NCBI GenBank assembly: GCA_964016885.1
Contig: OZ024741.1
Span: 159,588,001-159,652,000 of the forward strand
Source of the DNA: Eledone cirrhosa
Lineage: Eukaryota
DNA length: 64,000 bases
Reading direction: 5' to 3'
Both the position numbers and the translations under genes were made by a program. Below the pieces are notes generated by a model that was not told the DNA's origin, made no database searches, and saw nothing but the letters and a program-made list of their open reading frames with translations. This document shows, piece after piece, positions 7,393 to 63,938 of this stretch. How positions within the stretch are numbered: position 1 is the first letter of the stretch; the number at the start of each line of letters is the position of its first letter.

Positions 7393-7472
7393 TGTAAGTA
7401 TACAAATATATATATTTATATATATATTTATATATAAAGAAGAAATTAAAAGATGATTAAAAAAGTTCAATA

Positions 7473-7542
7473 TATTTTATTATGCACATTTCGAAAACAA
7501 CATCATCCTGGGACAAAAATTGTGTTCTCATCAGATAAAATA
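7473..7542 (-). ncRNA. Type I hammerhead motif in the PLE pLTR
   Basis: tattttat CTGATGA gaac...gttttc GAAA tgtgca TA ataaaata, with an 8-bp helix I. Confidence 0.8.
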
Positions 7543-7880
7543 AGATAACATGATATGAGGCCTAAAAACACTTGTGAACAAGAACGTGTCCAGTCTACAT
7601 ATGACAAAAATATAAGAGAAGAGAAAAAAATAGGAAAAAATGAAGAAAAGGAAAGAAGAAGGAAAAAGGAAAAAGAAATAGAAGAGAGGAAAACAGAAAG
7701 AAAGAAGGAGGAGAGAGAAAGAGAATGAGAGAGAGAGACTTTTGATCTGGGAATGCTGTCAAAAATGAAAACAGCTGTAAATAACGGCTAAAAAAAAAAA
7801 TAAATAAATTGATGAGGTGTAAGTGCGAATATTACAAATATTAGATGCCTAGAATATAGAAACTGGGTATATTATTTTAT

Positions 7881-8060
7881 TTGGCAGTATCGGTAGAGGG
7901 TCGGACGCCATGCTTTCCAGCATAGTTACGTCCCTTTATGATCTGAGTTCAAATCCCGCCGAGGTTGACTTTGCCTTTCATCCTTACGGGGTCGATAAAA
8001 TAAAGTACCAGTAATGCACTGGATAATTGCTGGCCTTGTGCCTAAAGTAGAAACAATTAT
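7881..8060 (+). mobile_element. Main-family SINE nested in the PLE 3' UTR
   Basis: A and B boxes plus family body. ATTATTTTAT is duplicated at 7871-7880 and 8056-8065. Confidence 0.9.
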
Positions 8061-9939
8061 TTTATATTGAGTTTGAATACTAAAACTTGGATTAAGAAGT
8101 GTCAAAATGTATTAATAAAATTAAATAAAATTAAATTAAAAATAATTATAATAATTATAAAAAAAAGGTTTGTAAAATAAAATAAAATAAAATAAAATAA
8201 GATAGAATAGAATAAAAAAATAAAAATAAGAATAGTCTATCTATATGAAAATAAAAAATTACTATTGAAAATCTATATATGTGGGGTATATTATTTAATT
8301 ATTATTTTATATCAACAATTAAATAAAGGAAATTGCTAGAAAGGTTTATAAACGTAGAAAGACATATGACGTCATAGTTTGTATACAAAATCTACGAAGG
8401 TTTGAACAAAAATTTAAGGCAATAGAGGAAAAAAGGTGAAAGGCTTAAAAATGCAGAGAAAAGAGAATTAATGCATTGTAGGATATAATGAAATATGTGA
8501 GAAAAAATGTGTGAAAAGATATATGTGTAAAAAAATTAACCGTTATTTGTGGGATATGTTATAGGACATTAGCTGTATACTTTGTGAAAGATCTTAAAAT
8601 ATTTATGATTACAAAGTCCAAATAAGTCTGTACGTATATTTATTAAAGAGTTGAAATTCGAGATAATGGTAAATTTTTCAGCATGACATAAATTATAAAC
8701 CATAGATATGGAAGCAATGGAGTAAGGAAGAGCGTTGCAAATTTTACGCCAAGAAATTTCGTAATTAATGTTTTTGTCTTTTAAGGAAACAAATGGGTTC
8801 TGAGAGTGCGGTGCTGGTCCTTTTAAGTGGATATTTAAATGTAGAAGAATGGTTATAGTCTTGCTTTAAAAGAAGTAGAAGTAGAGCCAATGTTGGTATA
8901 GGTATTGGTAGTAGTTACCACTTTACATTCGTATACTAGGTTTTTATCGAGACAGAAATTACTAAGAGGACAATTAGTTCTAATAGGGCAGTTGCATTTA
9001 CGATTAAGATTATTAACAGAGTTATTTGCAAGTGGCCCAGGATTATTTGTATTAGGAACTGGAGTGGTGGAATTAGCTAAAGGAGGTGCTAAGGTTTCCT
9101 GATTTACATTACTATTTGAAGCATTCCTCAAAGTTAGGTTTGACGTCGTATTTGTATTTATGTTATTTTGCCTAGAGTTTACATTGACGTCGGGCCTTAC
9201 AGTGTTATTATTATGACTCTCATGGTTGAATGCATATGAGTTATGGTTTAATATTTTAGAATTATGTCTTGAGATAATTTTAGAAATGTTGGAAGTAGTG
9301 GAATATGAGAATTTAATGGTATGCTTATTAAAAATCTTGCTATATATATGTGAAGGGGGGAAGCTGTTATCTAAAGCCCTAAAAAATAATTTAGGGATAT
9401 TACTAATAAGTGAAAGAGAGAAGGGAGCGTTGTACCAAAGGATATTTTTATATCTAGGTCTCCTCCTTATGTTACTGGTATGATTATTACTAGCTACATT
9501 ACTATAAGTTCTGCCAAGATTAGTTTCCTTAGTGTATCTAATTTTGTCTGGATATCCAGCCCTAGATAACGCATTATGATAATAGTTGGCATTAGCATCG
9601 AAGATATGTTTATTAGAGGATAAATTAGAAATTCTTTTTTCAACACTTCTGAGTATAGCAGTTTTAACATTATTAGGGTAGTTTGATTTAAAGTTGACAT
9701 AATTTAGGTTCTCATTATCCTTATGGTATGGGTAATATAGGCCGGTATCTAGATTAAGGGATATATCAAGGGATATATATATATTGTTTTCTAAATGCGC
9801 ATAATAAAATATATGGAACTTTTTTAACCATCTTTTAATTTCTTCTTTATATATACTCCAGTTCTACCAACTGTTGAGTGCTACTTATCTGATATATGCA
9901 TAGTTTTATTGTTCTACAATATTACTCACCTCCTACATA

Positions 9940-10645: not shown

Positions 10646-10648
<3 letters not shown>

Positions 10649-10790
10649 CGAAGGAAATGTGGTAAGGAACCAAGTGGACCATAACGCACCAAAGTACTCA
10701 ATACTTAGGGTAGTAGAGTGGGTAATAGGAACGAGTAGGACCCCGACGAAACGGCTTGAGCTCAGCCGTCGGGGTCCTACTCGTTCCTAT
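10646..10790. mobile_element. Family X foldback insert, short copy
   Basis: Same sequence as 32053-32270, 62421-63755 and 63813-63938. Embedded in (TA)n. Confidence 0.85.
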
Positions 10791-24409: not shown

Positions 24410-24823
24410 TACATATATAACTATATATTCGGAGTGTATATGAAAACATATACTAGATTTTTATATCACTAGCAAATGTTCATCATGCAAAATTCTATAT
24501 AGATTCCAATCTTTTCCATGCCAGTACTGGTGAATGTCACCGATGAAAGATTAAAAAATCTTGAAACAGCACTGTCTGACATTCTCGACCATATTGACAA
24601 CTCTGTAACATATAGAGAAAAATAGTTTTTTCATTACGAAAAAAATATTTTTCTTTGATAGCGAGGCTATCCATATGTTTATCATAAGCTAATGTCGATT
24701 GGAAAGATCATACCCAGCCTTCAAATGTGTGGCTTTATACAATTAATATATAAATTAATAATAATTTATATATTTATAAATTATAATCATATAATACAAT
24801 TAATAATACAATTTATACAATTA

Positions 24824-26186
24824 ATAATTGTTTCTACATTTGGCACAAGGCCAGCAATTATCTCAGTATATTACTGGTACTTTATTTTATCGACTCCGTA
24901 AGGATGAAAGGCAAAGTTAACCTCGGCGGGATTTGAACTCAGACCATAAAGGGCCGTAACTCTTTGCTGCAAAACATGGCGTCCGACCTTCTACCGATGT
25001 TGCTGATGCTGTTAATAATAATAATAATAGATTCTGATTTAGGCACAAGGCCTGCAGTTAGTCCGCGTATTACTGGTGCTTTATTTTATCAACTCCGTAA
25101 GGATGAAGCCAAAGCTAACTTCGGTGGGATTTGAACTCAGAACATAAAGGGCCATAACTCTATGCTGCAGCGCATGGTGTCTGACTCTCTACCGATACTG
25201 CCATTCCACCGCCCTGTTAATAATAGCTGTTTCTACTTTTTGACACAAGGCCAGCAAATTACCCAGTGCATTACTGGTACTTTATTTTATCGACCCAATA
25301 ATGATGAAAGAAAAAGTTAACCTCGGCAGGATTTAAAGTCAAAACGTAAAGGGCCATGACTCTATGATGCAAAAAATTGTGTCTGACGCTCCACCGATAC
25401 TGCCAATCCATCGCCTTTCATTGTAATAATTGTTTCTACTTTTGGCACAAGGCCAGCAATTATCCAGTACATTACTGGTACTTTATTTTATAGACCCCGT
25501 AAGGATGAAAAGGCAAAGCTAACCTCGGTGGGATTTGAACTCAGAACGCAAAGGGTCATAATTCCATGCTGCAAAGCATAGTCTCTGACGCTCTACCGAT
25601 ACTGCCAATCCACCGCCTTTCATAGTAATAATTGTTTCTACTTTTGGCACAAGGCCAGCAATTACCCAGTACATTACTGGTACTTTATTTTATCGACCTC
25701 GTAAGGATGAAAGGCAAAGTTAACTTCGGTGGGATTTAAACTCAGACCGTAAAGGACCGTAACTCTATGCTGCAAAGCATGGTGTCTGACTCTCTACCGA
25801 TACTGCCAATCCACCGCCTTTCATTGTAATAGTTGTTTCTACTGTTTGGCACAAGGCCAGCAATTATCCTAGTACATTACTGGTACTTTATTTTATCGAC
25901 CCCGTCTTGATGAAAGGCAAAGTTAACCTCGAATAATAATTGTTTCTACTTTAGGCACAAGGCCAGCAATTACTCAGTACATTACTGGTACTTTATTTTA
26001 TCGACCCCGTAAGGATGAAAGGCAAAGTTAACCTCAGCGGCATTTGAACTCAGACTGTAAAGGGACGTAACTATACTAGAAAGCATGGCGTCCAACCCTC
26101 TACCGATACTGCCAATATAATAATAGGGAATAATTGTTTCTACTTTTGGCACAAGGCCAGCAAATACCCAATGCATTACTGGTACG
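24824..26186 (-). repeat. Head-to-tail array of about 8 main-family SINE units
   Basis: Units start near 24826, 25030, 25226, 25425, 25626, 25830, 25937 and 26130, all in the same orientation. Confidence 0.92.
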
Positions 26187-32052: not shown

Positions 32053-32265
32053 TAACGAAGGAAATGTGGTAAGGAACCAGATGGACCATAACGCACCAAA
32101 GTACTCAATACTTAGGGTAGTAAAGTGGGTAATAGGAACAAGTAGGACCCGATGGCTGAGCTCAAGCCGTTTCGACGGCTAATTCTGGACTAAATAAAAT
32201 TTTTTATTTAGTCCAGAATTAGCCGTCGAAACGGCTTGAGCTCAGCCGTCGGGGTCCTACTTGTT

Positions 32266-32270
<5 letters not shown>
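32053..32270. mobile_element. Family X foldback insert
   Basis: Tail 32053-32131, arms 32132-32199 and 32202-32270, in (TA)n. Confidence 0.88.
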
Positions 32271-32541: not shown

Positions 32542-33537
32542 TGGGTGAGAAGAATACTGCTGGTTGCACATGGATAACATGTTATAAAATGAGTCCCTCA
32601 TCAGTGATTTACCAAACGATCATGGGTATTTCATCGCATTAAAAATCATATACCTCACGTTGGAGCGATAATAACTAAAATAAGTTATTAGGACAATAGA
32701 AACGCGTTAAGCGAGTGAGACAAGTAAACAACACAGGGGGAAGCTAACCGAAGATGGAAATAAACACAAGCAACATAGTTATTCTTTCAGTATAAGCTGT
32801 GTGAATATATGAGCGAGTCAGAAAACAGACGTTTCGCTAGTGAATCCGGTGTTAGAAAGAATGAAAACCGTTTTCCCAGCGAACGGGAGGAAGAAAGAAG
32901 GGGAGACACAGGGACTGAGTGAGTGGGAGTGCGAGGAAGAGGTCAGTAGAGAGAAAGATTTAACTGACGTGGCAGAGGGGACGAAAGAAAGTAAAAGAAA
33001 CAGAGAGAACGAGGGAGCAGTAAGAGAGAAAGAGAGAAACACAAATATATATATATATAAATATTTATCCTCCTCTCTCTTTCTGTCTCTCTCTCTCTCT
33101 CTCTCTTCCCCACCCAGAAACAACTGTCTAACTGACAGTATCAATCCAATTCTATTGTTTCAAACTGATTTCCCCCCTCCCTTCCTTTTCTCTCCCATCC
33201 CACACCTCATCTCTGCCCCTCCCTCACATCTCTAACTCCTTCCCTTCCTCATAACTCCCCCTCCTCTTTCCTTCCCTATCAGAATAATCTAATTTCTTCA
33301 GGGACTCTAAAACACTCACACCAGATTAGAACTGCTGCTTCTCTTCTTCATAACTTCAGCATGTTATTCTTATTGTCCTTATTGTTATTCTTATTGTTGT
33401 TATTGTTTTTGTTGTTATTGTTGTTATTGTTTTTGTTGATGTTATTGTTGATATTGTTATTGTTGTTATTGTTTTTGTTGGCGTTGGTCTTGTTATTGTT
33501 GTTGCTGTTTTTCTTGTCGTTGTCTTGTCATTATTAT

Positions 33538-34180
33538 CGGTGGATTAACAGACACGGTAGAGGGTCGGACGCCATGCTTTGACGCATAGAGTTACGGCCC
33601 TTACCATTCTGAGTTCAAATCCCGCCGAGGTTAACTTTGCCTTTCATCCTTACGGGGTCGATAAAATAAACTACCAGTAATACACTGGGTATTTGCTGGC
33701 CTTGTGCTAAAAGTAGAAACAATTATTATCGGTGGATTGGCAGACTCGGTAGAGCATCGGACAACATGCTTGGCAGCAGCACAGAGTTTTGACTCTTTAC
33801 GGTCTGAGTTCAAATCCCGCCAAAGTTAACTTTGCCTTTCATCCTTACGGGGTCGATAAAATAAAGTACCAGTAATGTACTGGGGTCAATTTAATTGACT
33901 TTCCCCTCCCCTTCAAATTGCTGGCCTTGTGCCTAAAGTAGAAACAATTATTATTAAGTTGTGGTGGATTGGCAGAATCGGTAGAGCATTGGACACTATG
34001 CTTCGCGGCATAGTTACGTCCCTTTACATTGTGAGTTCAAATCCCGCTGAGGTTAGCTTTGCCTTTCATCCTTACGGGGTCGATCAAATAAAATACCAGT
34101 AATGCACTGAGGTCGATATAATCGAGTTTCCCCTCCCCCAAAATTGTTGGCCCTGTCACTATAGTAGAAATTATTATTAT
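33538..34180 (+). mobile_element. Three tandem main-family SINEs
   Basis: Units begin near 33538, 33730 and 33962, each with A and B boxes and an ATT tail. Confidence 0.9.
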
Positions 34181-34406
34181 CAAATTGTGATCAAAGATAT
34201 CCAAGCTATGACCATCCCTTCTTTTCGGGGTGACATGGGGGTTAGAACCACATTATCCAATGTGCTCGTATTTATGTATATCTAATGTTTGATGTGAGGG
34301 AGAATTGCTTGCCATTTCTAGCTTATCCAATAACCAGAGAGATGTTGCCACCGGGTTGTACTGAGGTATTTTGGTACGCAAACACCAGTCCATCCATCCA
34401 ACCTAC

Positions 34407-38804: not shown

Positions 38805-38940
<136 letters not shown>

Positions 38941-39032
38941 GTAGGAGGTGAGTTTTATTGTAGTACAATAAAGCAATGCAGATATCGGATAAGTAGCACT
39001 CTACAGTTTGTAGGACTGGAGTATAAATAATA

Positions 39033-41188
39033 TAAAAAAATCTTAAATTCAAGAGAAACCCTTACAGAGGACAAGAGCACGTTGTAAATCTCAAGAACAC
39101 GATTTCAAACCTAAATTCCTCAAAAAATGTTTTAGTCCACTCTGACAAAACAAATAATTTATATGGTATTTCTAAGGACAACTATAACAACCTTATCTTA
39201 AAGGAACTTAGGAAAAAATATCGCAAAACCAACCATGATAATTTAGAATCCATAAACTTTGAAGCTTCTGAGATTATGTCAAAACTTAGCATCGGAAAAA
39301 AGACCGAACCATTCCTCCCAAGAACTCCGAGGATAAATCTCAAGGATCACAAAAACAAATTTCGTACTGAACTACCTGTTAGACTAATCGCCCCCTCTAA
39401 ATCAGATCTGGGGGTTGTTAGCAAAGCCATCTTGGATAGAATTATCCCACAGGTTCGTTCTAATTGCTCTTCTTTGAACTTAAATTTATGGTTTGGTACT
39501 TCTGAAGTGATTGGCTGGTTCAACAAATTGGATAATAAAAACAAACTAAAATTTATTCAATTTGATATTGCCAGCTACTATTCTTCTTTTTCGCCCTCAC
39601 TTCTCAACAATGCTCTATCTTTCGCTTACAAATATTCAGACATCACCACAGATGAACTTCACATCATTCTCACCACACGTAAAACCATCCTAGAGTTCAA
39701 CAATGAATATTGGACCAGAGCTGATACCTCTAACAACTTTGACATCACAATGGGAGCATCCGATTCATCCCAATTGACAGATTTAATTGGTATCTTTATT
39801 TTGAACTCTTTGAATCGGAAAATTCCTCAACTTCGCGGTGGAATTTATCGTGACGATGGACTCTTTACTATCTTAAATTGCAACATAGTTAACCTTAATA
39901 TTATTAAGAACAATATACGTAATCTCTTTAACCAACATAACTTAAAAATTGAATTTGATAACAACATCAAACTAGCTAATTTCTTGGATGTATCTCTTAA
40001 TCTTGACACTGGTCTATATTACCCTTACCATAAAAACAATGAGAATCTAAATTATGTTAATTTTAAATCTAACCATCCCACTAATATTAAGAATGCTATA
40101 GTTAGTAATATTGGAAAAAGAATATCCAACCTATCATCTAATAAAAACATCTTTGATGCTAACGCCAATTACTATAATTACGCGCTTTCTAAAGCCGGTT
40201 ATTCTGATAAAATCAAATATAGTAAAGAAACAAATTCTAGAAGATCTTACAGTAGAATAATTAATCATGATCATTCCAATAACTTTAATAAAAGACCTAG
40301 ATACAAAAACATAATCTGGTATAATGCTCCTTTCTCCATCTCTATTAATAATAATATTCCTAAATTATTCTTTAGTGCCTTAAATAAATTCTTCCCTCCC
40401 TCACATATCTATAGTAAAATATTTAACAAACACACTATAAAATTTTCCTATTCGACCTCCTCCAACATCTCCAACATTATCTCTAAACACAACAATAAAA
40501 TACTAAATACTAAATCTCTTCCTTCCATCACTGAATATCATAATAATAGTAATAGTACTCCCGACGTCATTGTTAACTCTAGGCTAATTTCTGCAAACCC
40601 AAATACAACGTCAAACGCAACTTCGTTAAATGTTCTTAATCCCAATCTAAATCAAGAAACTATTATTCCTATCTTAAATAACTTCTCCAATCCAATTCCT
40701 TCTATAGATAACACTAGGTCACTTGTTAATAACACTGTTAATTTCTGTAATCGCAATTGTAATTGCCCTGTTAAAAATAAATGTCCTCTCAACAACCATT
40801 GTCTTGAAAAACAAACTTAATCTACGAATGTAAAGTTATAACTGACACCAATTCCTTTACCTATTTTGGCTCCACTTCCACCTCCTTTAAAGCTCGTCTT
40901 TATAATCACCATTCGTCTTTTAAATACCAACTTAAAAGAACCAACACGGCACTCTCAGAACTCATATGGTCCTTGAAAGACAAAAATATTAACTATAATA
41001 TCTCTTGGAGGAAGGTTTATTCTGCTTCTCCATACTTGAATGCTTCTTTATTCAAGACATGTAATCTCTGTTTATGTGAGAAATTTACCATTATATCTAA
41101 TTTAGATTCTATAATAAATAGACGCACTGACTTGTTTTCTCTCTGCTTGCATAAATTCCACAGAACATTCCATAAAGTATACAGCTAA
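39033..41188 (+). pseudogene. PLE RT plus GIY-YIG endonuclease ORF with one frameshift near 40813
   Basis: In-frame SDKTNNLY upstream of the called ATG, QFDIASYYSS, ITMGA, GIYRDDGL, NFLDV, linker CNCPVKNKCPLNNHC (CX1CX5CX5C), LIYECKV..YFGSTSTSFKARLYNH and CNLCLCEK. DKT and CX1CX5CX5C are Naiad hallmarks as I recall them. Confidence 0.9.
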
Positions 41189-42146
41189 TATCTAATACTT
41201 TACCAATTTAAAATCCTTTTCTCAAAGGCACATATATATATACATATATATTTCTTTAAAAATATACCCATCTTTCTACCTTATTTCAATGTTATTTATT
41301 ATACATTATATAATACTAGTTACTCATTCTATATCACTCCTATTTATCACTTCCCTTTCTTTCTTTTTTTTCCTTTTTTCTTTTAATTTCTAACCTCTAA
41401 TCTGTACCTTTTCTTCCTAGATACTTCTCAATTCTCATTATTTCTCACCACAATATATCCTTACCCTCTTAAATACTTTATAATATCACCTTGAAAAATC
41501 CTTCGTAAACATAAACATTTTTTTGACGTTAGATTATTCATCCTCAATTCATTATTTTTTCTCCCTTTCATGTTCATCTAACTTATACATATTACACATA
41601 TTCATCCATTCATCCACTCTTCTACTTCTTTTCACAATATATCCTTAATTACATTACTATTGTTATATTTTTATATTTTTTTAATAATACATATCAACAA
41701 TTTCTTTCCATCGCACATATTATTAAACCCTTAAATATTATTCTTAATACATATTAACAATTTCTTTTCATCGCACATATTATTAAACCCTTCAATATAC
41801 AAACCTTAATTTAACATTATTCTTAAATTTTTCTCTTCGTTAATTTTCAAATTCTTTTAATTTATATATTATTTTCCAACGGTTTTTAACCTCTTTATGT
41901 AAAACAATATATTTTTCTCAGTTATAAAAGCTATCTCTCTCTCTCTATCACCCATCTCTCCTCCTATTTCATCCTTCCTTATTATACTCCTCCCCCTCCA
42001 TTCTTTACTCTCATCTCCTCGTCTTTTTCATCCCCCCCCTCAATTTTTTTTCCTAATATCACACATCAATCTAAAACTACTTTTCATATGTTGATTTAAA
42101 ACTGCACTATTCACAAGTGTTTTTTAACCTTCATATCATGTCTCCC

Positions 42147-42217
42147 TATTTTATCTGACGAAAACGCAAATGTCATCGCATGATGATATTTGTTTTTGAA
42201 ATGCGCATAATAAAATA
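42147..42217 (+). ncRNA. Type I hammerhead ribozyme in the PLE pLTR
   Basis: tattttat CTGACGA aaacgcaaatgtcatc-gcat-gatgatatttgttttt GAAA tgcgca TA ataaaata. 8-bp helix I, long helix II, palindromic helix III. Confidence 0.85.
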
Positions 42218-42247
42218 CATGGAATTCTTTTAACCATCTTTTGATCT

Positions 42248-42367: not shown

Positions 42368-42411
<44 letters not shown>

Positions 42412-42460
42412 CGAAGGAAGTGTGGTAGGGAACCAGATGGACCATAACATATATATATTA

Positions 42461-43416
42461 TAGCTTAAAATAGAGTGAGAATAAGTAGAAAGCAAGAACG
42501 GAGGTGGGATGGGGGCAGTTTTCCTCATCAGTTGTCTACTGGGGGTCTCGGATATTTCCATGCTTTAAAGACAAGATATCTACCGCCCAGAGCGTTCAGT
42601 AACTGGGTAAGTTATTGGGAAAACGGAGGAGGGAAGGAAAACAGAAGGGAAAAGGGAAGAAAAGAGAAAACAGCGAAAAAACCCCAACAAACCGAGCAAT
42701 GTACGAGCAACTTAAGGTAAGAAAATCCAAGACCACATTGATAACAGAACTTAAGTTCAAGAGCGTGTGGGCGAACGAAAAGACACGTCTGACCCCAACG
42801 AGTTGTAAGTGAGAAAAGGACTACTATAGGGTCAGGCGAGGGAAACAATAAGGTGGCTAGAAGAGAGAAGATGAGTGAAAGTGAGAGGGTTAAAGGGAGA
42901 GGAAAAAAGTGGGGTAAGAGTAGACAGTAACGAAATAGGTAGGTAGAAGGAAGGAGAGAGAAGACTGGTCACCGCGAAACATGATAAAATATATGGAGAA
43001 TAGGATTGGCTGTGTGGTTGCTAGTTCAGGTAGCTTAAAATGGAGTGAGAATAATAAGAAAGCAAGAACGGGGGAAGTTTTCCTCATCAGTTGTCTACTG
43101 GGGGTCTTGGATATTTCCACGCTATTTAAAGACAAGATATCTTCCGCCCAGAGCGTTCAATAACTGGGTAAGTTATTGGGAAAACGGGGGAGGGAGGGAA
43201 GGAAAATAGAAGGCAAAAGGGAATTCGATGTTTTTTTCGCTGTTTTCTCTTTTCTTCCCCCTTCCCTTCTATTTTCCTTCCCTCCCTCCTCCGTTTTCCC
43301 AATAACTTACCCAGTTATTGAACGCTCTGGGCGGTAGATATCTTGTCTTTAAAGCGTGGGAATATCCGAGACCCCAGTAGACAACTGATGAGGAAAGCCC
43401 CCCCCATTCTTGCTTA
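42461..43416. repeat. Unclassified repeat with two direct copies and one inverted copy of an about 200-bp unit
   Basis: Direct copies at 42461-42685 and 43031-43222 (period 570), inverted copy at about 43230-43416. Preceded by a family X tail fragment at 42409-42448. Confidence 0.8.
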
Positions 43417-43423
43417 CTGTGGT

Positions 43424-43496: not shown

Positions 43497-46020
43497 TGAA
43501 ACCAAGCTCTAAGTTTTCGTCCAGGGCTTTTCTCAATACATAGTCGAGGCAGATGATAAAAATATATGGTGCAAGAGTATCCCCTTGGAGTACTCCTGCA
43601 ATGATGTCAAAGAAGTTGGTATCTCCATCAGGTGAGCGCACCATTGCGCGGGTGTTTTTATATAACATCATGATGGCATTTACTGTTTCCTTTGGCAAGC
43701 CGTGGCTAGAAGTATCTCTATCATCCTCCCACGATGGATGGAATCGAATGCTTTTAAAAAGTCAATAAACAGGAGAGTTGCTGGGAGGTTTTTGGCTTTT
43801 ACGCCTTCCAAGATACGCCGAATAGTAAGTATTTGCCCTGATGTTGATCTGTTGGTGCGGAAGCCATTTTGGTTTTTTCTCAGCAAGGGATCAATGACAG
43901 GTCTTATTCTGTCAAGCAACATGAGATTGTATATCTTTGCGGCAATTGCCATTAGTGTTATGCCACGGTAGTTTTTAGCCATTCCAAGATCGCCCTTTTT
44001 GGGAAACGGGAGTATACATCCCTCAGTCCATTTGTCTATGGGGTCTTGATTATAGACACCATTACACAACTCTAGTAGGATTGGATGAAATTCAGGTACC
44101 TTCCACAATTCAGCTGGGATCTCGTCGAGTTCACACGCTTTTCCGATACCAATACTGTAGTTCCTCTATAGTGAAAGGACCTTTCTGTATTTGGTGTTCC
44201 TCTGTAAAAACGGGTATTATTTCTTCTTCGATGATCTGTGGTGCTTTGCCAAGTAGGTTCTGAAAATGTTGTTGCCACAGTTTTAAACGTTCGTCTTGGC
44301 TGGAGGCTTTCAGTTTGGCTCTGTCACTACTTTTTCTACCACTAATTTCATTGACAGTTTTCCAGGCTTCAGCAGACCTCTTATTGCTGACAGTACTCGA
44401 GATATGATTGATCTTTCTCTGCATGTATTCGGCTGGCTCAATTTCATACTCACTTTTCAGTGCTGTACAAGCAGCATTGAAGTTACTAATGTTTTCTGGA
44501 TATCGTTGAGTGTCTTTCAATTCTGCAGCTTTTCGCAACTCTTTGCGCTTTTGGCGTATCCTCTCTGTTTCCCAGGGTTTTCGTTTTGTAACCTTGGGTT
44601 TTAAAGGGATGGTGTCGGCCGCTGACTCTTTGAATGCCATTTGAAAGTGGTTAAATGTAGAATTTGACGATTTTGTTGGCGCAGAGTCTTGTAGGGCAGC
44701 AAATCGGTTGCTCCGTTGGGTTACAAAGGTTTTGTAAGTCTCAGAATTGTTATTCAGAACTGCCCAGTTCTAAGGAGTAGCATTCGCAGATTTCTTTTTA
44801 TCCACTCGGAGACTTAATCGTATCTTGGCCGAGACAATGCGATGATCCGAGTCAACACTAACAAATGAGTCATATGCTCTGCAGTTTTTTGCGCTGTTCT
44901 TCCATTTTCGATTGATTATGATATAATACAGTTGTGTCTTGTCGCCATTTAGATATTTGTGTGTCCACCGCTGGCCTGGTCTTTTTTGGAATATGGCGTT
45001 CAGACATCGTACATTTTTTAAAGTAATCTTTTAGCATACAACCGTTTCTATTGGTTTGTGAGTGATATGAGAATTTGAATCCATCAAGCTGTCCTAGACG
45101 CGCGTTGAAGTCTCTGCCAATGATGAGAACATTATTTTTCGGGATTTGTCTAGTGAGTGATGTTAGTTCCATGTAAAACCTCTCTACTTCGGCCATGTCA
45201 CATACATTTGTTGGACTCACAAAGCGAAAGTGTATACGCCATGCAGTTCAGAAAATCACCGATGCTGACTATGCGGATGATTTAGCGGTCCTCGCTGACT
45301 ACCTTAAAGATGCAACATCACTACTTCACAGCATCGAATCAGTTGCAAAGGAAATCGGACTCTATGTCAACGCAGGCAAAACAGAATATATTTGCTTGAA
45401 CCAAGACTCCTCAGTTGGTATGCGAAGTCTAAACGGCGATATAATCAAGCAAGTTGACGACTTCAAATTCCTGGGTAGCTATATCGCCTCCACAGAACAT
45501 GATGTTAACATCAGACTGGGAAAAGCCTGGGGAGCATTGAATGCAATTTAAAAAATATAACCTGCCGGCCAAACTGAAAAGGAATTTCTTCAGAGCTGCT
45601 GTGGAATCTTTGCTTGTTTATGGCTCTATCACTTGGACGCTAACGTCGAAACTGGAGAAAAAGCTAGACGGGGCATACACACGTATTCTCCGTGCAGCTT
45701 TAAACGTATCTTGGAAGGAACACCCAACAAATAAGGATCTCTATGGCAATATACCACCTATCAGCAGGTCAATACGTGGACAGAGACTCAGATTTGCTGG
45801 CCAGTTGGCGCAGCAAGGAAGAGATAGCAGGTGATGTATTGTTATGGAGTTCATCTCATGGAGCAAGAAACGCTGGTCGTCCCAAGAAGACATATGCCAA
45901 GCAACTTGAGGACGATACTGGATGCAATGCGGAAGAACTGGCAAACGCTATGAGAGACAGAGATGGATGGAGGAAACGTGTCGTAGAGAGCCGAGCAAGC
46001 TCGACCTGATGATGATGATG

Positions 46021-49612: not shown

Positions 49613-50769
49613 ATTAACCACTATATATATGTATATACTTTGTGGGTTACTGGAGGTGAGGTACCAATATATAATATTGGGTATGAATCGAAGTTAAAGA
49701 CACAATAAAACAGGTACTAATCGAATTGTTTGAGGCAATCACAAAGCACTCAATGGAATGAGAAGTTAATACATTATCGTCCAGAGTAAACACACAAATT
49801 CATAAAGTGTGACACCAAGAAAAATGACCAAAGGCTGTGGCCATACTTATACCACAACAGTGATAAATACAAATTGGGTGAAGATTAACCTGGACCATCT
49901 AGAGTCGATTAGAATCGATAGAAATCGATAAAAGTCTTCGATACGTTTCTGGGAGCTCTGGAAGCTACAAGAAAAGTTGCATAATGCATATGCAATTCAT
50001 GTATGCATTTCCACGATGGAACTGGAGCTCCCGTCTTCTAGTAGGTAAATATATCCAAGGTATAGAGTAACTCAAGACCATAGGGCGAGTTTTAATATAA
50101 TTATAAAGGCCAGTTATTACAACGGCGTCATACCAGGTACGTACGTTTTGTTAGCCCTTGCGACCAACTTATTCAACCTGTGCCGACGAAGCGAAAAATG
50201 TTTACTCAGAAAAGATATACAGAACAAAGAGAGAAAGGACTCAAATCTAGATGGTCTAGTGGGGACAATTTGACCGAAAACACGGGAGCAAACGTTAAAT
50301 GAGCTAATAATTATGGTTGGGCTAGAAAAAAAAATGATAGATTAAGAAAGATGTAAAACAATATTAAGGAAGCCAGTTCTTCAAAAAGTACTTAGGAACT
50401 TGAGAACCTTTGTGGGCTATATATATGTCTATAGGTAATAGAAAATTCCAGAGTAGACACATAGTTATTCGCTTCAATACAACACACGTAAATGGGTACC
50501 TTCAATTTATACCCGTACTCGAGTTTCTTCCACACTTAATGCAGCAATAGAGTGCACAGCATCCACTGCTTGCATTTATTATGCAACAATGCACAATCGG
50601 CGCATATGGCTTCATCAGCGGGTTTCGCCTAATCAATGGACAATCGGCTATGACAGCGAATGCGATGGTCAACACAGTAAAACATCAGCAACTGAAATCC
50701 CTATGCGTCATCACAATGCCGTCGACCGATTGGCTACCTACATCTGTTTATATGTATATATATGCATAC

Positions 50770-52225: not shown

Positions 52226-53430
52226 ATGAACGCTGCGTCCAACGATAATGGTGGTGGAGAGGCGGTAAGACTACAAAGATCGCAGTCAACAACGTCTTCT
52301 TCACTAGATACTATAGAGATGGAAAGACAAAATGAAAATAAAAAAACGAATTCATATCCAAACAACACAAATGACACCAAACAGTTCAATGACAACAAAA
52401 ATAACAGCAAAACCAATAATGATGATAAAAGCAACAATGATAACAACAACAAAGAAAAAAATAAAGACAACACCAATAACACCAGCATCAAAGACAACAA
52501 CAACACCAAGGAAAATACGGATGATACCAACATCGGTGACAACAAGCATAACAACAAGAATAACAACAATAATGACAACACCACCAATACGGATTCCACA
52601 AAGAAACCAAAAATTTCCTTTGCAGAGAAAGTTCAAAAGAAGGAAGAATTGATATATCTCGACATAACAAATGCTGAACAACTTTTAAAGGACGCTAGGA
52701 GATAAAAAATGGTGCTTTCAGCATCAATTCTCCGGTAGAAATTCGCAAGGAAACTGCTCTCAAAACGATGGTTTTTAGGACAGTTTCCAATTCTACCCGA
52801 AAACCAGTCCAATTGTCACAGAAAGAAATTGAACTGGTTTTCAAAAATTCAATGAATGATATTGCATTCATTCAAAGAAGCAAACTTTTTGAGAGTATTT
52901 CGGTACTCGTGAAGGATCAATTGACGGCCCAAAACTACTCTGTGTCGCCAATTGTATCCATCCTGTACACCTTTTTCCCTACATACATGGGAAAAAGGAC
53001 ACAAAAGATCAGAATCACGAGTGTCACACCAAAGGTGAACATATGGTGGATACTGTGCGGCTTCATCAATTTTGATGAAGACAGAATACTGTCAGTAGGC
53101 AAGTCCCCCAGAGATGTATTCAATGGGACTAGCATTGAAGTTCTGGTGCAAATGAGCCCAGAGCGAATAGCTATGATCCCACAGCGTGTACTCCTGGACG
53201 GACTCACCTACATAAACTTTTCGGTTGAGGGTAGGCGGCCTTCATGTTACCATTGCTTTAGCAGGGGTCACCTGAGTTCTTCCTGTCCTAAATTAATGAA
53301 CAAAAAAAAAGGCTCTTCTGCCGACACCCATCAAAACAACACAACCACCAACACCACCACCACAACAACAACACCAACACACAAAAATAACCACAACAAA
53401 CACAGTCCCATCCAACCCCATCTTCGATGA
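52226..53430 (+). pseudogene. Tx1 ORF1 (gag-like, CCHC knuckle), interrupted
   Basis: ISFAEKV motif and VEGRRPSCYHCFSRGHLSSSCP. Stop at about 52703. Confidence 0.82.
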
Positions 53431-56400
53431 CTTTGAGATCTACGCATCTCTCTGTCAACCGGGGGGTGGGGGCGGAGTTGCCGTTTTGCTTCGGAAACAC
53501 TTGCGCCTCGTAACACAGACGGTACATCTGGACCCGGAGGGTCGACTGGTGGTCCTAGACGTTGACGGTAGCGAAGGTGGAGCCTTCAGGCTGGTGGCCG
53601 CATATGCTCCATCCGGGCCACCGCGGCCAGACTTCTTCAAACGTCTAGAGACTTTTCTGGGAACGTCCCGCTCCTTGCTTTTAGTGGGGGACTGGAATGG
53701 AATCCTAGATGCACGTTGGGACTATGTGGGAGCATGTCCCGATAAAGGGGGGTGTAACTGCCTCAAACAGTTAATCGACCGATTTGACCTGGCCGATAGA
53801 TATCGACTAGATTTTCCGACTGCGCCACTGTAGACGTGGAGTAATCGCAGCGGAACATCTAGATCGTACCTAGATAGGGTTCTAGTTAGAAATAAGGATA
53901 GGGTCATGTTAAGCTGTCCACAAATGTTCATGGTTGCCTATTCAGATCACAAACTAGTGACCTGCATGGCCAACCTTGATAGAACCCATAGACAAGGACC
54001 CGGCTACTGGAAGCTGAACTTGTCGTTACCGACAAGCAAAGCCTACAGTAGACGGATTAGCACTTTAGTTAAACAGCACTTGACAGGGGCCATTGTCAAC
54101 AACAGATAGTGGTACTCTCTCAAGAGGGCAGTTAGATTAGACTCGATAGTTTTTAGTAAAGAATTAGCGTTAGATAGAAATAGAACCGAGAAGGAACTGG
54201 TAGATAAAGTAGAAGAGGCAATTAAAAGTGGCAACGTAGCCAGCGTGCTAGCAACGAGAACGGCCTTGGACCAGTTCTTCGACGCAAAGAACGAGGGCTG
54301 CGTTGTCAGAAGCAAAATACGTGCTCTGGGAAACGAGGGAGCCAAAGCTGTTAGCTGGGCCCGAGTGACGGAGGCAAAAAGTGGCAACAAGTCCACGATT
54401 CAGTCTTTGAAGGACCAAAACGGACGCATGATACGTGAGCCGAAGCAGATGTGTGCGGCTTTTCAGCGGCACTTTGCTCGGCTGTTCGGGGGGAGCGGCG
54501 CGCCGGGAGAGGCTATGGATTTCGGTCCATACCTCGACAGCCTACCGCGACTCTTGGACAGCGAGGCAAAGTTCTGCGAAAAGCCGATTTCAGCCACTGA
54601 GATAGGGGACGCGCTGAGCCAATGCGGCAAACGCAAATCTCCAGGTCTCGACGGTCTACCCTATGAATTTTACGTAGCAATGCCGGACTTATTCTCCGGT
54701 CTCCTGGAAGCGGTCTACTGCAACTGGCAACAGAACGGGAGAATTCCCAGTTCTGTAACCGGGGGCGTGGTCACACTAATCAGGAAGGACGAGAATAAGG
54801 GGGATGACATAGGCAACTTCCGGCCCATAACTCTGCTAAACACAGAGTTACAGATTTTGGCCAAGGTGTTGGCAAAGAGGCTGGCGCTTGTCGTCGAGAA
54901 CCTGGTGGGAGAAGCGCAGACATGCGCAATCCCGACCAGGTCCATACACGACAACCTCCACCTCATGCGATACATCATAGAGAGGGTAGGGTGTAAACCC
55001 GGCTTCGGTGGGGCCCTGATCAACTTGGATCAGTCTAAGGCTTTCGATAGGGTTGACCATCGTTACCTGGATGCGGTGCTCGAGGCAGCAGGTTTCGAAC
55101 CCGTGTTCAGGGGCTGGATTGCTGCAATGCACAACAGCAACATCTGCTCAAGGGTCAAGGTGAACGGCTATCTCTCGGAGCCGTTCCATATTACGCGATC
55201 CATTCGACAGGGATGCCCTCTCTCCTCCCTTCTGTACGTACTGACTCTCGAGCCACTACTGCGGAAGCTGGAGCTATTGCAGGGCATCCCTCTGGAACCG
55301 GGACTGCGAAAAGCGGCGTCGGCCTACGCCGACGACGTGCCAGTAATGGTGTCGAGCGCCTCGCAAATCGAGGAAGTCGGCACCTTACTGAAGGAATACG
55401 AAAGTCTCACAGGAGCGAAGCTGAACCGGGACAAGTCCATCGGTTTGCAACTCGGATCGTGGAGAAGCAGACCGATGCCTTCCGATGGCGTCGTCGAACG
55501 CTGGACGGAAGGACTGGTAAAGCTGCTCGGGGTCTGGTTTGGTCCGGACCTCCAGGTGGAGAAGAACTGGAACGAAGTGACGGCCAAGGTGTTTGCACAC
55601 ACCCAGAAGTGGGCCGAGTGCAAACTATCCTTGAAAGGTCGAGCGGAGGTGGCGAACACTTTTATAGCGTCCGCCATCTACTACCGCTTGACCGTCGTGC
55701 CTTGTCCAGCCAAAACGCTCGCCAAAATGGAACGCGCGCTCTTCCGATTCCTTTGGAAGAGGCGGGCTCCTTTGGTGAGAAGATCCATCTGCTGCCAACA
55801 CCCTTATAACGGAGGGCTGGGAATGCCGTGGTTGACGATGCGCAAACACGCGCTCAGGCTGCGGTATCTCTACGTATTCCTCACCGGACAACCGGTGTGG
55901 GCCCCGTTCGTGAGGCGAGCCTTCCCACGACTCGTCTCGCTGACCGAGCTGCAGTCCTGGGTCAAGCAAAGACCGAGGAAAATGGGCGACTGACACATCG
56001 AATGTGCTCAGGCACTCACAGCCCTCTGGCAGGCGGACACGGCGATCAGTGGAGACTCCACTTCGTCATTCTATAGAGGGTTGGTCCGCAGCAAGTGCGA
56101 CGACGTGCTCGATGAAACTCTAGGCGTAGAGGAAGATGAACTGGCCTGCCTGTTCGGTAGGACCTTCCGCCCGGGACCGATGGACAACTTCCAAAAGTCC
56201 CTGGCCTGGCAGTGCTACCGAGGAGCTCTACCAGTTCGAGACAAGCTCTACAGACATGGGCGCCCGGGCAGGGACCCTGCAAAAAAGATCTGTCCGAGGT
56301 GCGTGCGAGACGAAGAAACCGTCGCGCACGCATTCATACACTGCCCGGGCGTCACTGACTAGGTAGAACGACTATTGTCGCGGGTGGGACCAATCCAGTT

Positions 56401-58084: not shown

Positions 58085-58258
58085 AGGGTCGGACGCCATG
58101 CTTTGACGCATAGAGTTACGGCCCTTGCCATTCTGAGTTCAAATCCCGCCGAGGTTAACTTTGCCTTTCATCCTTACGGGGTCGATAAAATAAAGTACCA
58201 GTCATGTACTGGTTATTTGTTGGCCTTGTGCCAATAGTAAAAACAATTATTATTATTA
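58085..58258 (+). mobile_element. 5'-truncated main-family SINE
   Basis: B box, family body and ATT tail. Confidence 0.88.
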
Positions 58259-59080: not shown

Positions 59081-59517
59081 TATATTAATAAGAGGAATTC
59101 CAACTTTGTCTGATTTACTCGTTTTATTTACAATCCTTTAAAATATATATAATATGGTATTATAATGAAATAGTATGATAGAATATTAAATTCTAAGTGT
59201 TAATTGAACAAGTACTTTCATGCTTTCGAAATCTTCAGGTTCATGATATGTGGTGACAGTCGAGTTTGCAATTTTCAACTGTCAACAGTTGAAAATTGCA
59301 AACTCGACTGTCACCACATATCATGAACCTGAAGATTTCGAAAGCATGAAAGTACTTGTTCAATTAACACTTAGAATTTAATATTCTATCATACTATTTC
59401 ATTATAATACCATATTATATATATTTTAAAGGATTGTAAATAAAACGAGTAAATCAGACAAAGTTGGAATTCCTCTTATTAATATAATCTTCTATACACA
59501 ATCATACACACCCGTGT
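59081..59517. mobile_element. Near-perfect palindromic insert with HHR motif in both arms
   Basis: Arms 59081-59282 and 59285-59486, 2-nt spacer, tail to 59517. HHR at 59324-59362 is tgaac CTGAAGA tttcgaaagcat GAAA gtac TT gttca. Confidence 0.82.
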
Positions 59518-59570: not shown

Positions 59571-61208
<1,638 letters not shown>

Positions 61209-61211
<3 letters not shown>

Positions 61212-61974
61212 AATTAGTATATCTAGTAACATATATATACACAGATGCATACTTATGTTAGCAAATATATAGGTTTTGTCTTAGTAACTATGTGGTTCAA
61301 TGCATGGGGTTGCAGAACAATAATATGGATTGATGACGAAAGGCTTCTCCGTGCTCTCTTCGGATAGTACGTTTAATCCCTTTCAGAAACTAATTAGTTG
61401 GGAGTGAAATTTAAGTAAGTAAGTTAATTTTATAATTTTCTTATTTTACGTCTCTCATATTATTGTTCTGCAACCCCATGCATTGAACCACATAGTTACT
61501 AAGACAAAACCTATATATTTGCTAACATAAGTATGCATCCGTGTATATATATGTTACTAGATATACTAATTCTTTATAATTATCTCCAAAATTATTTGTC
61601 GAGCAAAAATGGTCAAAACTGCTGCTATAGTAACAGTACGGCTGCTGTCTTACTAACAAACCACTATCCACTGATTGACCTCGATGTCACGTGATTGATT
61701 CTTTTGAATTTGCCACCGATGCAGTAGGCAGTGATTTTATCAATGGCTTGGCATTAGTCCTCACTTTGCTTTTTCCATCCACTGAATTATTTTTGTATAA
61801 GTTCCCTGTGTCCACGTATTGCCTGGAAACTTAGCTGAGAATAGACTTCCCTGATGACGAAAGGCTTCTCCGTGCTCTCTTCGGATAGTACGTTTAATCC
61901 CTTTCAGAAACTAATTAGTTGGGAGTGAAATTTAAGTAAGTAAGTTAATTTTATAATTTTCTTATTTTACGTCT

Positions 61975-61976
<2 letters not shown>
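61209..61976 (+). mobile_element. Non-coding retrozyme-like element with 521-nt unit and inverted 5' arm
   Basis: Direct repeat 61331-61455 / 61852-61976. Inverted arm 61209-61327 versus 61456-61574. (TA)n flanks. Confidence 0.85.
61845..61926 (+). ncRNA. Type I hammerhead ribozyme motif
   Basis: acttcc CTGATGA c-gaaagg...cctttc-a GAAA ctaattag TT gggagt. 6-bp helices I and II, 10-nt palindromic helix III. Confidence 0.8.
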
Positions 61977-62006
<30 letters not shown>

Positions 62007-62010
<4 letters not shown>

Positions 62011-62334
62011 GACGGCGTATATATGTGTTGGTATGTATATTTAATCTTGATAATTTGTATAATTTTGTATAATTTTGTACATAGATCTGTTGAATATGCA
62101 TACCAATTCTAACACATATATATCCTAGAAACGATCGTTAAATAATGAACTTTTTTTGTTTAATATAAGGAATTGTTTATTCATTATTTGTTTAATATTT
62201 TATCTTGACTCTGTATACCGTTTATCTTTCACCGAAAGTGATTTTTCATTACATCTCTTCTTTCCATGATATCCGGAATACATTGAGTTCTTCATACGGA
62301 TTGGACACTACCGTAAACTCTTGGTAGATTTATC

Positions 62335-62335
<1 letters not shown>
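62007..62335 (+). mobile_element. PLE-type terminal fragment with 5'-clipped long-helix-II HHR
   Basis: TGAAGA at 62007, long stem (tatatatgtgttgg/ctaacacatatata), GAAA cgatcg TT at 62128-62139. (TA)n flanks. Confidence 0.6.
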
Positions 62336-62420
<85 letters not shown>

Positions 62421-62423
<3 letters not shown>

Positions 62424-63275
62424 CGAAGGAAATGTGGTAAGGAACCAGGTGGACCATAACGCACCAAAGTACTCAATAGGGTAGTAGAGTGGGTAATAGG
62501 AACCAGTAAGACCCCGACGGCTGAGCTCAAGCCGTTTCGACGGCTAATTTTGGACTAAATGAAAATTTATCCTGGTATTTAAATAGCCGAGCTTCTCAAG
62601 AGGTAATTCCATATATGGTCAAAGTGATTGTCACAAGGATTGGTCACAAGTTAGTAGTAATTCTGTGATGGCAAATTAGTGGGGGAAGGGGTAGCTAAAC
62701 CTGCCAGTAGGAGAAAAAAGGGGAGGGGGTGGAGTAGACCCATTCATGCGTTGGTGGTGCCGGCTACAGCTGGGCGTGAGGTCAAAGAAGATACTAGGGA
62801 GGGGGAGGGGGAGGAAGTCGAAACGGTAAGTAGAACAATGAAGGGTAAAAATATACTGAGAGTGAAGCGAATAAATGTAAAGAAAAAAAAAATAAAATAA
62901 GCAATTTCTACGACCTAAGTCTCTCGCTATTGCTAGGCTAAATAAATAAATAAATAAATAAATGAATAAATAGATAAAGAAATAAAAAAATAATAAATAA
63001 ATAAACTAGGTGGGACGGAATAGGAAAGGACCCTTTTAAGAGGTATAAGTACGTATATCATACAGTGACGGGTCAACAAAGGGGGGCCAAAATACTAAAG
63101 AAACTACCACGAAATAATTAATAAAGGTTTCTACCCAGGGCACAAGGCCAGCAACCACCCAGTGCAGAAAAGTAAACTAGTACGAAATAATAATTCAGAG
63201 TCCCGAAAAAATATACTAATGCTAACTCTAAGGGTACCGCCACGCTACAAAAGTTCTTATACAAGCTACATGAAT

Positions 63276-63306
<31 letters not shown>

Positions 63307-63750
63307 TTTCTTTAGCCTAGCAATAGCGAGAGACTTAGGTCGTAGAAATTGCTTATTTTATTTTTTTTTCTTTACATTTATTCGCTTCACTCTCAGTATA
63401 TTTTTACCCTTCATTGTTCTACTTACCGTTTCGACTTCCCCCCCCTCCCCCTCCCTAGTATCTTCTTTGACCTCACGCCCAGCTATAGCCGGCACCACCA
63501 ACGCATGAATGGGTCTACTCCACCCCCTCCCCTTTTTCTCCTACTGGCAGGTTTAGCTACCCCTTCCCCCACTAATTTGCCATCACAGAATTACTACTAA
63601 CTTGTGACCAATCCTTGTGACAATCACTTTGACCATATATGGAATTACCTCTTGAGAAGCTCGGCTATTTAAATACCAAGATAAATTTTCATTTAGTCCA
63701 GAATTAGCCGTCGAAACGGCTTGAGCTCAGCCGTCGGGGTCTTACTGGTT

Positions 63751-63755
<5 letters not shown>
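62421..63755. mobile_element. Family X foldback element, long copy
   Basis: Tail 62421-62495, arms about 62496-62960 and 63290-63755, no ORF, in (TA)n. Confidence 0.9.
63647..63740 (+). ncRNA. Hammerhead motif with U3-A8 core (mirror copy 62511-62604 on minus)
   Basis: acctc TTGAGAA g-ct-cggcta...tagccg-t-c GAAA cggc-ttgagctca-gccg TC ggggt. Confidence 0.75.
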
Positions 63756-63812
<57 letters not shown>

Positions 63813-63815
<3 letters not shown>

Positions 63816-63938
63816 CGAAGGAAATGTGGTAGGGAACCAGGCGGACCATAACGCACCAAAGTACTCAATACTTAGGGTAGTAGAGTGGGTAATAGGAACG
63901 AGTAGGAGCTCAGCCGTCGGGGTCCTACTCGTTCCTAT
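63813..63938. mobile_element. Family X foldback insert, short copy
   Basis: Same tail and arm ends as the other family X copies. Confidence 0.85.

Follow-up and report, generated by a model that had tools for sequence, protein, structure and literature searches.

The insertion at 61209-61976 of the window, by which we mean the whole 64,000-nt stretch of DNA analysed, is in all probability a young copy of a multi-copy, non-autonomous Penelope-like element (PLE), which in a broad sense counts as an animal non-LTR retrozyme; its unit measures 521 nt. The fuller explanation that we prefer, in which this non-autonomous PLE would have been inserted by reverse transcription primed at two sites of an RNA template, with a leaning towards a linear one, has in our estimation a probability of roughly 0.6.

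The window consists of AT-rich, microsatellite-laden DNA of animal type, and the element is flanked by (TA)n on either side (61128-61208 and 61977-62007). From left to right, a minus-strand inverted arm (61209-61327) is followed by a 3-nt inversion junction (61328-61330) and, all on the plus strand, by a 5′-truncated pseudo-LTR (pLTR A′, 61331-61455), a segment we call tail B (61456-61574), a non-coding body C (61575-61844, or to 61851 if counted up to A) and the 3′ pLTR A (61852-61976). The two pLTRs are identical at 125/125 positions and lie 521 nt apart from start to start, and the longest ATG ORF in the closed (circularised) unit encodes 53 aa on the plus and 27 aa on the minus strand, which bears out the sequence-only reading of a 125-bp direct repeat, carrying a hammerhead ribozyme (HHR), that recurs at 521 nt with no ORF between. 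The inverted arm is the reverse complement of tail B at 118/119 positions, with the sole difference at 61540, and stops at 61456, the first base beyond the direct repeat. A monomer of 521 nt (61400-61920, plus strand, 35.7% GC, no ORF above 53 aa) is predicted between the cut sites, the first of which would fall at 61399/61400 within A′. An ORF for RT plus GIY-YIG, as expected of an autonomous PLE, was absent from the unit in the ORF check, and a tRNA scan of 60900-62400 returned no tRNA. The locus comprises 1.24 units with a single complete HHR; the description of a complete HHR-to-HHR unit thus stands as regards the 521-nt unit but not as regards two complete ribozymes.

The boundaries of tail B, termed T1 (61456) and T2 (unit position 61574), are the putative RT start sites. 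T1 lies 56 nt past the predicted cut site in A′ as well as in A, where it forms the 3′ end of the element. ATAT or TATA begins no more than one base after each of the two, as it does for 25 of the 521 positions of the unit. Within the tail, a bulged hairpin (61514-61565, plus strand) folds with 22 bp and two 1×1 loops. The earlier reading had called this hairpin shared; its presence in the unit is evident, but not sequence sharing with other elements of the window, since 12 overlapping 60-nt pieces of 61331-61830 gave only AT-rich or short, chance-level matches against the rest of the window.

The second HHR, a type I hammerhead of PLE type (61845-61926, plus strand), is intact, as had been proposed, with helices I to III and core in place. 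Helix I has 6 bp (61845-50/61921-26), the core starts with C3 at 61851, GAAA and GUU lie at 61907-10 and 61918-20, helix II has 6 bp (61859-64/61900-05) plus an inner helix of 6+2 bp whose C(UUCG)G loop has been placed by its coordinates in the first copy (61358-61363), and helix III is palindromic; given the GUU at 61918-20, cleavage is predicted after 61920. The first HHR begins at U4 (61331), without C3 and without the 5′ strand of helix I, in agreement with its earlier description as clipped at C3. A strict type I descriptor found one site in the whole window, namely the second HHR, and none in shuffled sequences (0/2000 dinucleotide shuffles of the element, 0/60 of the window). Rfam returned no hammerhead in the window at gathering score and, at E up to 10, only six unrelated weak matches, and the HHR call therefore relies on the descriptor together with the folds and with the variation among copies described below. 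Two HHR patterns had 0 matches among metagenome contigs. PMC4209133, which reports hammerheads of PLEs as weak cleavers, gives a set of features for them that this ribozyme shares: an extra base between A9 and 10.1, a G10.1-C11.1 pair, a long helix II and a palindromic helix III. An additional A also precedes G12. In energy the active fold is 2.5 kcal/mol less favourable than the MFE structure, and we lean towards regarding this HHR as a weak or protein-assisted processor.

That the unit belongs to a family emerged from a comparison of one unit (61331-61851), at 80% likeness, with the reads or contigs of four of the 13 listed sequencing runs (X1, X4, X8 and X11); none of the 13 is on record as RNA. 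Matches comprised 2082 contigs in X1, 46 in X4, 11 in X8 and 7470 reads in X11, covering 29/29 bins of the unit in each of the four runs. The joint that closes the unit, from 61851 to 61331, was present in 160 X11 reads (19 starts) and in 4, 2 and 1 contigs of X1, X4 and X8, respectively, and a sister joint with a different helix II was present in 103 X11 reads; among the 15 joints listed, of at least 16, there was a single skip, in 3 reads. Complete bin coverage together with the closing joint in all four runs therefore indicates a multi-copy family, not a one-off deletion, so that the non-coding, retrozyme-like HHR unit posited by the sequence-only reading is a real multi-copy entity in reads and contigs. 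None of these spans a unit, and tandem arrays are beyond their reach; pile-ups of X11 read ends (61395, 61571, 61590, 61710) were excluded because RAD reads start at fixed sites. Identity of family copies to the unit ranges from 99+ down to <90%, and the window copy differs at several near-fixed sites from organism A, the source of the runs, which may therefore be a relative. Behind 61460, 18 X1 contigs enter (TA)n, and the short end T1 is therefore family-wide. The best-covered blocks of body C are 61673-61710 and 61781-61851. The former, best covered of the body in three runs, contains a palindrome, TCACGTGA, and two TGATTGA words; we take these to be E-box- and CCAAT-like, with an internal promoter as a possibility.

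Variation among the copies keeps RNA pairs. In the sister helix II, pairs 61342/61380, 61350/61371 and 61351/61370 are altered on both sides and 61356/61365 becomes paired, the X11 changes being 61365 T>A (417/457), 61370 C>T (406/459), 61371 G>A (178/459) and 61380 C>A (176/657); the 5′ letters of this helix come from a separate table and are only partly phased with the others. In helix I, 61402 G>A (69% of X1 depth) turns a G-U into an A-U pair. A variant of the tail hairpin behind 61523, found in 573 X11 reads (agreement 0.93) and in one contig each of X4 and X8, carries 11 substitutions and a loop shorter by 2 nt, and 13/13 positions of its stem pair by hand count, including six G-U pairs, two two-sided changes and one repaired mismatch. 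Judged on the pair-keeping changes among 40 of 185 substitutions, the preservation of helix II and of the bulged hairpin by two-sided changes and G-U pairs points to a selected plus-strand RNA, the G-U pairs identifying the plus strand as the RNA. Helix I, helix II and the HHR core look as though they have been kept by selection.

The same staggered ends recur in three further families of the window that are inserted in (TA)n. One comprises two 5′-truncated, broken coding PLE copies (38939-42245, plus strand; 7429-9938, minus strand), 73% alike. Their hammerheads lie at 42155 and 7534, the inverted tail measures about 90 nt, and the CxCX5C linker is preceded by an asparagine-rich insert; the motifs DKT and CxCX5C of these copies are diagnostic of the Hydra clade (PMC8557442 section 11). 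Naiad, considered as the type of partner, was dropped for these copies, since they combine a C-terminal endonuclease with Hydra motifs. Another family comprises five inverted-end stumps in (TA)n (10648-10787, 32055-32267, 42411-42450, 62423-63752 and 63815-63935) with tails of 76-81 nt and inversion points that vary between copies; the GAAAC...GUC half of a hammerhead is visible in these stumps, and the CUGANGA half was not found. A further (TA)n family (692-1130) has a tail of about 80 nt. Tails thus measure about 76-119 nt in the four families of the window, in all of which T1 is followed by TAT-like letters. The inverted arm at 38939 stops within a few bases of T1, and other arms are shorter (42411) or extend past T1 (9785, 10648, 62423, 63815). 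The 521-nt unit showed no similarity to the coding PLEs or the other staggered-end neighbours within the window.

Several further repeats were observed in the window. A near-perfect 203-bp palindrome (59081-59486, 99.5%) carries a hammerhead core in each arm, and both arms share one endpoint with no staggered tail. More hammerhead-like cores or inverted-end elements lie at 50618 (minus), 998 (plus)/747 (minus), 585 (plus), 59733-60965 and 42461-43418; the core at 50618 has an 83-nt structured helix II insert, and a long helix II could be widespread in this genome. An abundant SINE-like repeat, which we presume to resemble an octopus SINE, occupies 58085-58255 and about 15 further places, partly in 200-bp tandem arrays (24822-25931, 33530-34189). 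LINE-type fragments with APE-like endonuclease and RT domains are found at 53300-55993 and 43680-44165. Pfam searches of the window ORFs left the two PLE ORFs unrecognised and matched 3 of 14 ORFs to LINE-type domains.

For the insertion itself we propose that a PLE protein supplied in trans would nick both strands of a (TA)n tract and that reverse transcription would be primed at two internal sites of the plus-strand RNA: T1, and T2, which lies 119 nt further 3′ and just beyond the bulged hairpin, a candidate protein-binding element. The T1 cDNA would extend for 646 nt (1.24 units), across two cut sites that had stayed intact; priming from the opposite strand would yield a T2 cDNA comprising the tail only, halted at T1, and would thereby account for an inverted arm that ends exactly at 61456; the two would then be joined head to head at 61328-61330. 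We infer both primers and their order from this layout, which matches the two-site mechanism of PMC11167929, with 646 nt assigned to the T1 primer and the tail to the T2 primer. In that in vitro work on a PAc-type PLE, the protein nicks and extends both strands of AT-rich DNA, reverse transcription has two internal starts, both downstream of the HHR and separated by the tail, and HHR mutants insert normally, cleavage not being needed in vitro (PMC11167929). A typical PLE insert has two direct pLTRs plus one inverted (PMC3846280), a partial tandem with an inverted 5′-truncated copy is the standard PLE insertion (PMC3846280, PMC8557442), and non-autonomous PLEs are known (PMC8557442). The locus shows this anatomy, with partial tandem pLTRs that contain the HHR, a 5′ inverted segment and a tail at one end, and the tie to PLE machinery suggested by the sequence-only reading is upheld by it. 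Its argument that copying more than one unit implies a circular or multimeric template is logically correct, in that the template would have to carry two uncut or re-ligated cut sites, as a circle or as an uncleaved partial-tandem transcript, but it does not discriminate, such copying being the norm for PLEs. Counting against our explanation, no autonomous partner with a matching pLTR was found within the window, the tail measures 119 nt against the 30-40 published, and family-wide use of T2 is only suggested by a fall in X1 depth past about 61580, which divergence or RAD read ends could also cause. Likewise to be set against it are mixed loose ends before 61785-61786 in 769 X11 reads (agreement 0.36-0.46), which may reflect sister or coding families that share only the 3′ block.

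The template was probably an uncleaved linear RNA longer than one unit, of at least 765 nt if both cDNAs derive from the 3′ end of one RNA; we favour it because of the in vitro data, the weak type of HHR and the modest self-pairing. The same family and machinery acting on a 521-nt circle is a tentative alternative, to which we give appreciable weight well short of even odds. Site 1 would be cut by the second core, in a permuted or double-hammerhead fold, followed by site 2 and by RtcB-type ligation, after which the PLE protein would perform rolling reverse transcription with T1 as its start, the extension of a second primer at T2 ending at T1. In the modelled permuted fold, the second core sits on the first cut site, which it could cut, via a 10-bp helix III formed between the two palindromes; this fold has an energy of −140.2 kcal/mol, compared with −137.4 for the site-2 monomer fold and −144.4 for the unconstrained one. 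Both junctions are exact, and the identity of the pLTRs within so divergent a family, together with the conserved ribozyme, slightly favours the circle, but that identity comes from one young locus whose geometry is equally compatible with linear RNA. Coral, mussel and axolotl retrozymes give abundant circular RNA (PMC7229834), and a circle was already proposed for PLE tandems in 2014 (PMC4209133); on the other hand, 8 of 9 Xenopus retrozyme dimers remained uncleaved in vitro (10.64898/2026.07.22.740005), the anole PLE gave no reads ending at the HHR site (PMC11167929), and the HHR here belongs to the low-activity PLE type. Self-pairing is modest for the circular unit (z −1.8, 2/40 shuffles as good, 60% paired) as for the linear monomer (z −2.3, 0/100 shuffles as good). 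We weighed whether an arm that stops exactly at T1 proves a circle and concluded that it does not, since a linear RNA with T1 and T2 would give the same result. Doubtful, in our view, is the more specific proposal that a ribozyme-made 521-nt circle was primed twice at once by a PLE dimer at T1 and T2, on either side of a conserved hairpin, with short TA pairing to the target and the T2 cDNA halting at the T1 primer; if true, the long-tailed families of this genome would document, at genome scale, how one circle is primed at two sites, and retrozyme circles would for the first time be tied directly to the tail mechanism of PLEs.

Far less probable is an origin of the locus by a single internal deletion within a long coding PLE, with no independent spread of the 521-nt unit. 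Read depth peaks around the pLTR and tail and is lowest in body C (in X1, 1950 at 61619-61636 vs 827,000 at 61439-61456), as a deletion might predict, but near-fixed differences sit where the troughs in C are, diverged contigs run colinearly across the low-depth parts (61569-61705 and 61685-61816 in X4; 61500-61651 and 61654-61792 in X8), and X11 shows no dip over 61601-61654. Among the listed ends, compared by eye, contig loose ends before 61669, 61754 and 61786 read as diverged versions of the same upstream sequence. With the family evidence from four runs also speaking against it, we regard this reading as largely refuted. Least probable of all is an artefact of assembly or a product formed at DNA level, by satellite expansion or by fold-back recombination. 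Assemblies do have difficulty with inverted repeats and long TA tracts, and no read spanning the locus was seen among the runs compared, but the arms differ at one base, the ends sit on family-specific sites, the staggered layout recurs in three other families, and the variation keeps RNA pairs, including G-U pairs on one strand.

How PLEs form partial tandems, inverted ends and tails, and what the HHR contributes, is a question to which one paper answers with circles, whereas cleavage proved dispensable in one in vitro study. Being small, abundant and young, and having a long tail and covarying cis-structures, this family would lend itself well to tests: a genome assembly allows copy ends to be counted, as well as pLTR divergence within loci, and assays on an RNA of 0.5 kb are simple.

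Animal retrozymes have been argued to be non-autonomous PLE derivatives of 51-972 bp (Li, Clavereau & Pollet, bioRxiv 10.64898/2026.07.22.740005), a range that includes the present unit, which is larger than the 150-450 bp given by Cervera & de la Peña 2020 (PMC7229834). Like the retrozymes of both sources, the unit is non-coding, multi-copy as a closed unit, below 50% GC and linked to PLEs, with one type I HHR per unit. Active retrozymes are defined in the preprint as carrying two complete HHRs and animal retrozymes form tandem arrays, whereas this locus has 1.24 units and one complete HHR; their helix II is the canonical 4 bp, in contrast to the long helix II of PLE motifs seen here, and their circles have been demonstrated in coral, mussel and axolotl, whereas for our unit a circle is the less favoured alternative. 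With EN+ PLE insertions (PMC3846280, PMC8557442, PMC11167929) it shares two direct pLTRs and one inverted segment, an HHR within the pLTR, a stem-loop tail that separates two ends lying downstream of the HHR, and an AT-rich target, and it differs in having no ORF, a 119-nt tail where 30-40 nt are described, and an inverted segment that consists of the tail alone. PAc starts at a non-homologous site (PMC11167929), whereas ATAT or TATA lies within one base of both start sites here. Hydra-clade PLEs likewise have (TA)n targets and canonical HHRs (PMC8557442 section 11), while the Hydra-like coding copies of the window have no sequence match to the unit; non-autonomous Chlamys such as MRC1 also form pLTRs, but most Chlamys lack HHRs (PMC8557442). 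In main texts of the open literature, our searches turned up neither tails of 76-119 nt nor inverted arms made of the tail alone, and this or a related family may be present in the supplements of PMC7229834, PMC8557442 or the preprint. The family described here is a new one of an already known kind, the non-autonomous PLE or animal non-LTR retrozyme, and the details that it adds are the long tails common to four families of the window and an inverted arm that corresponds exactly to the tail.
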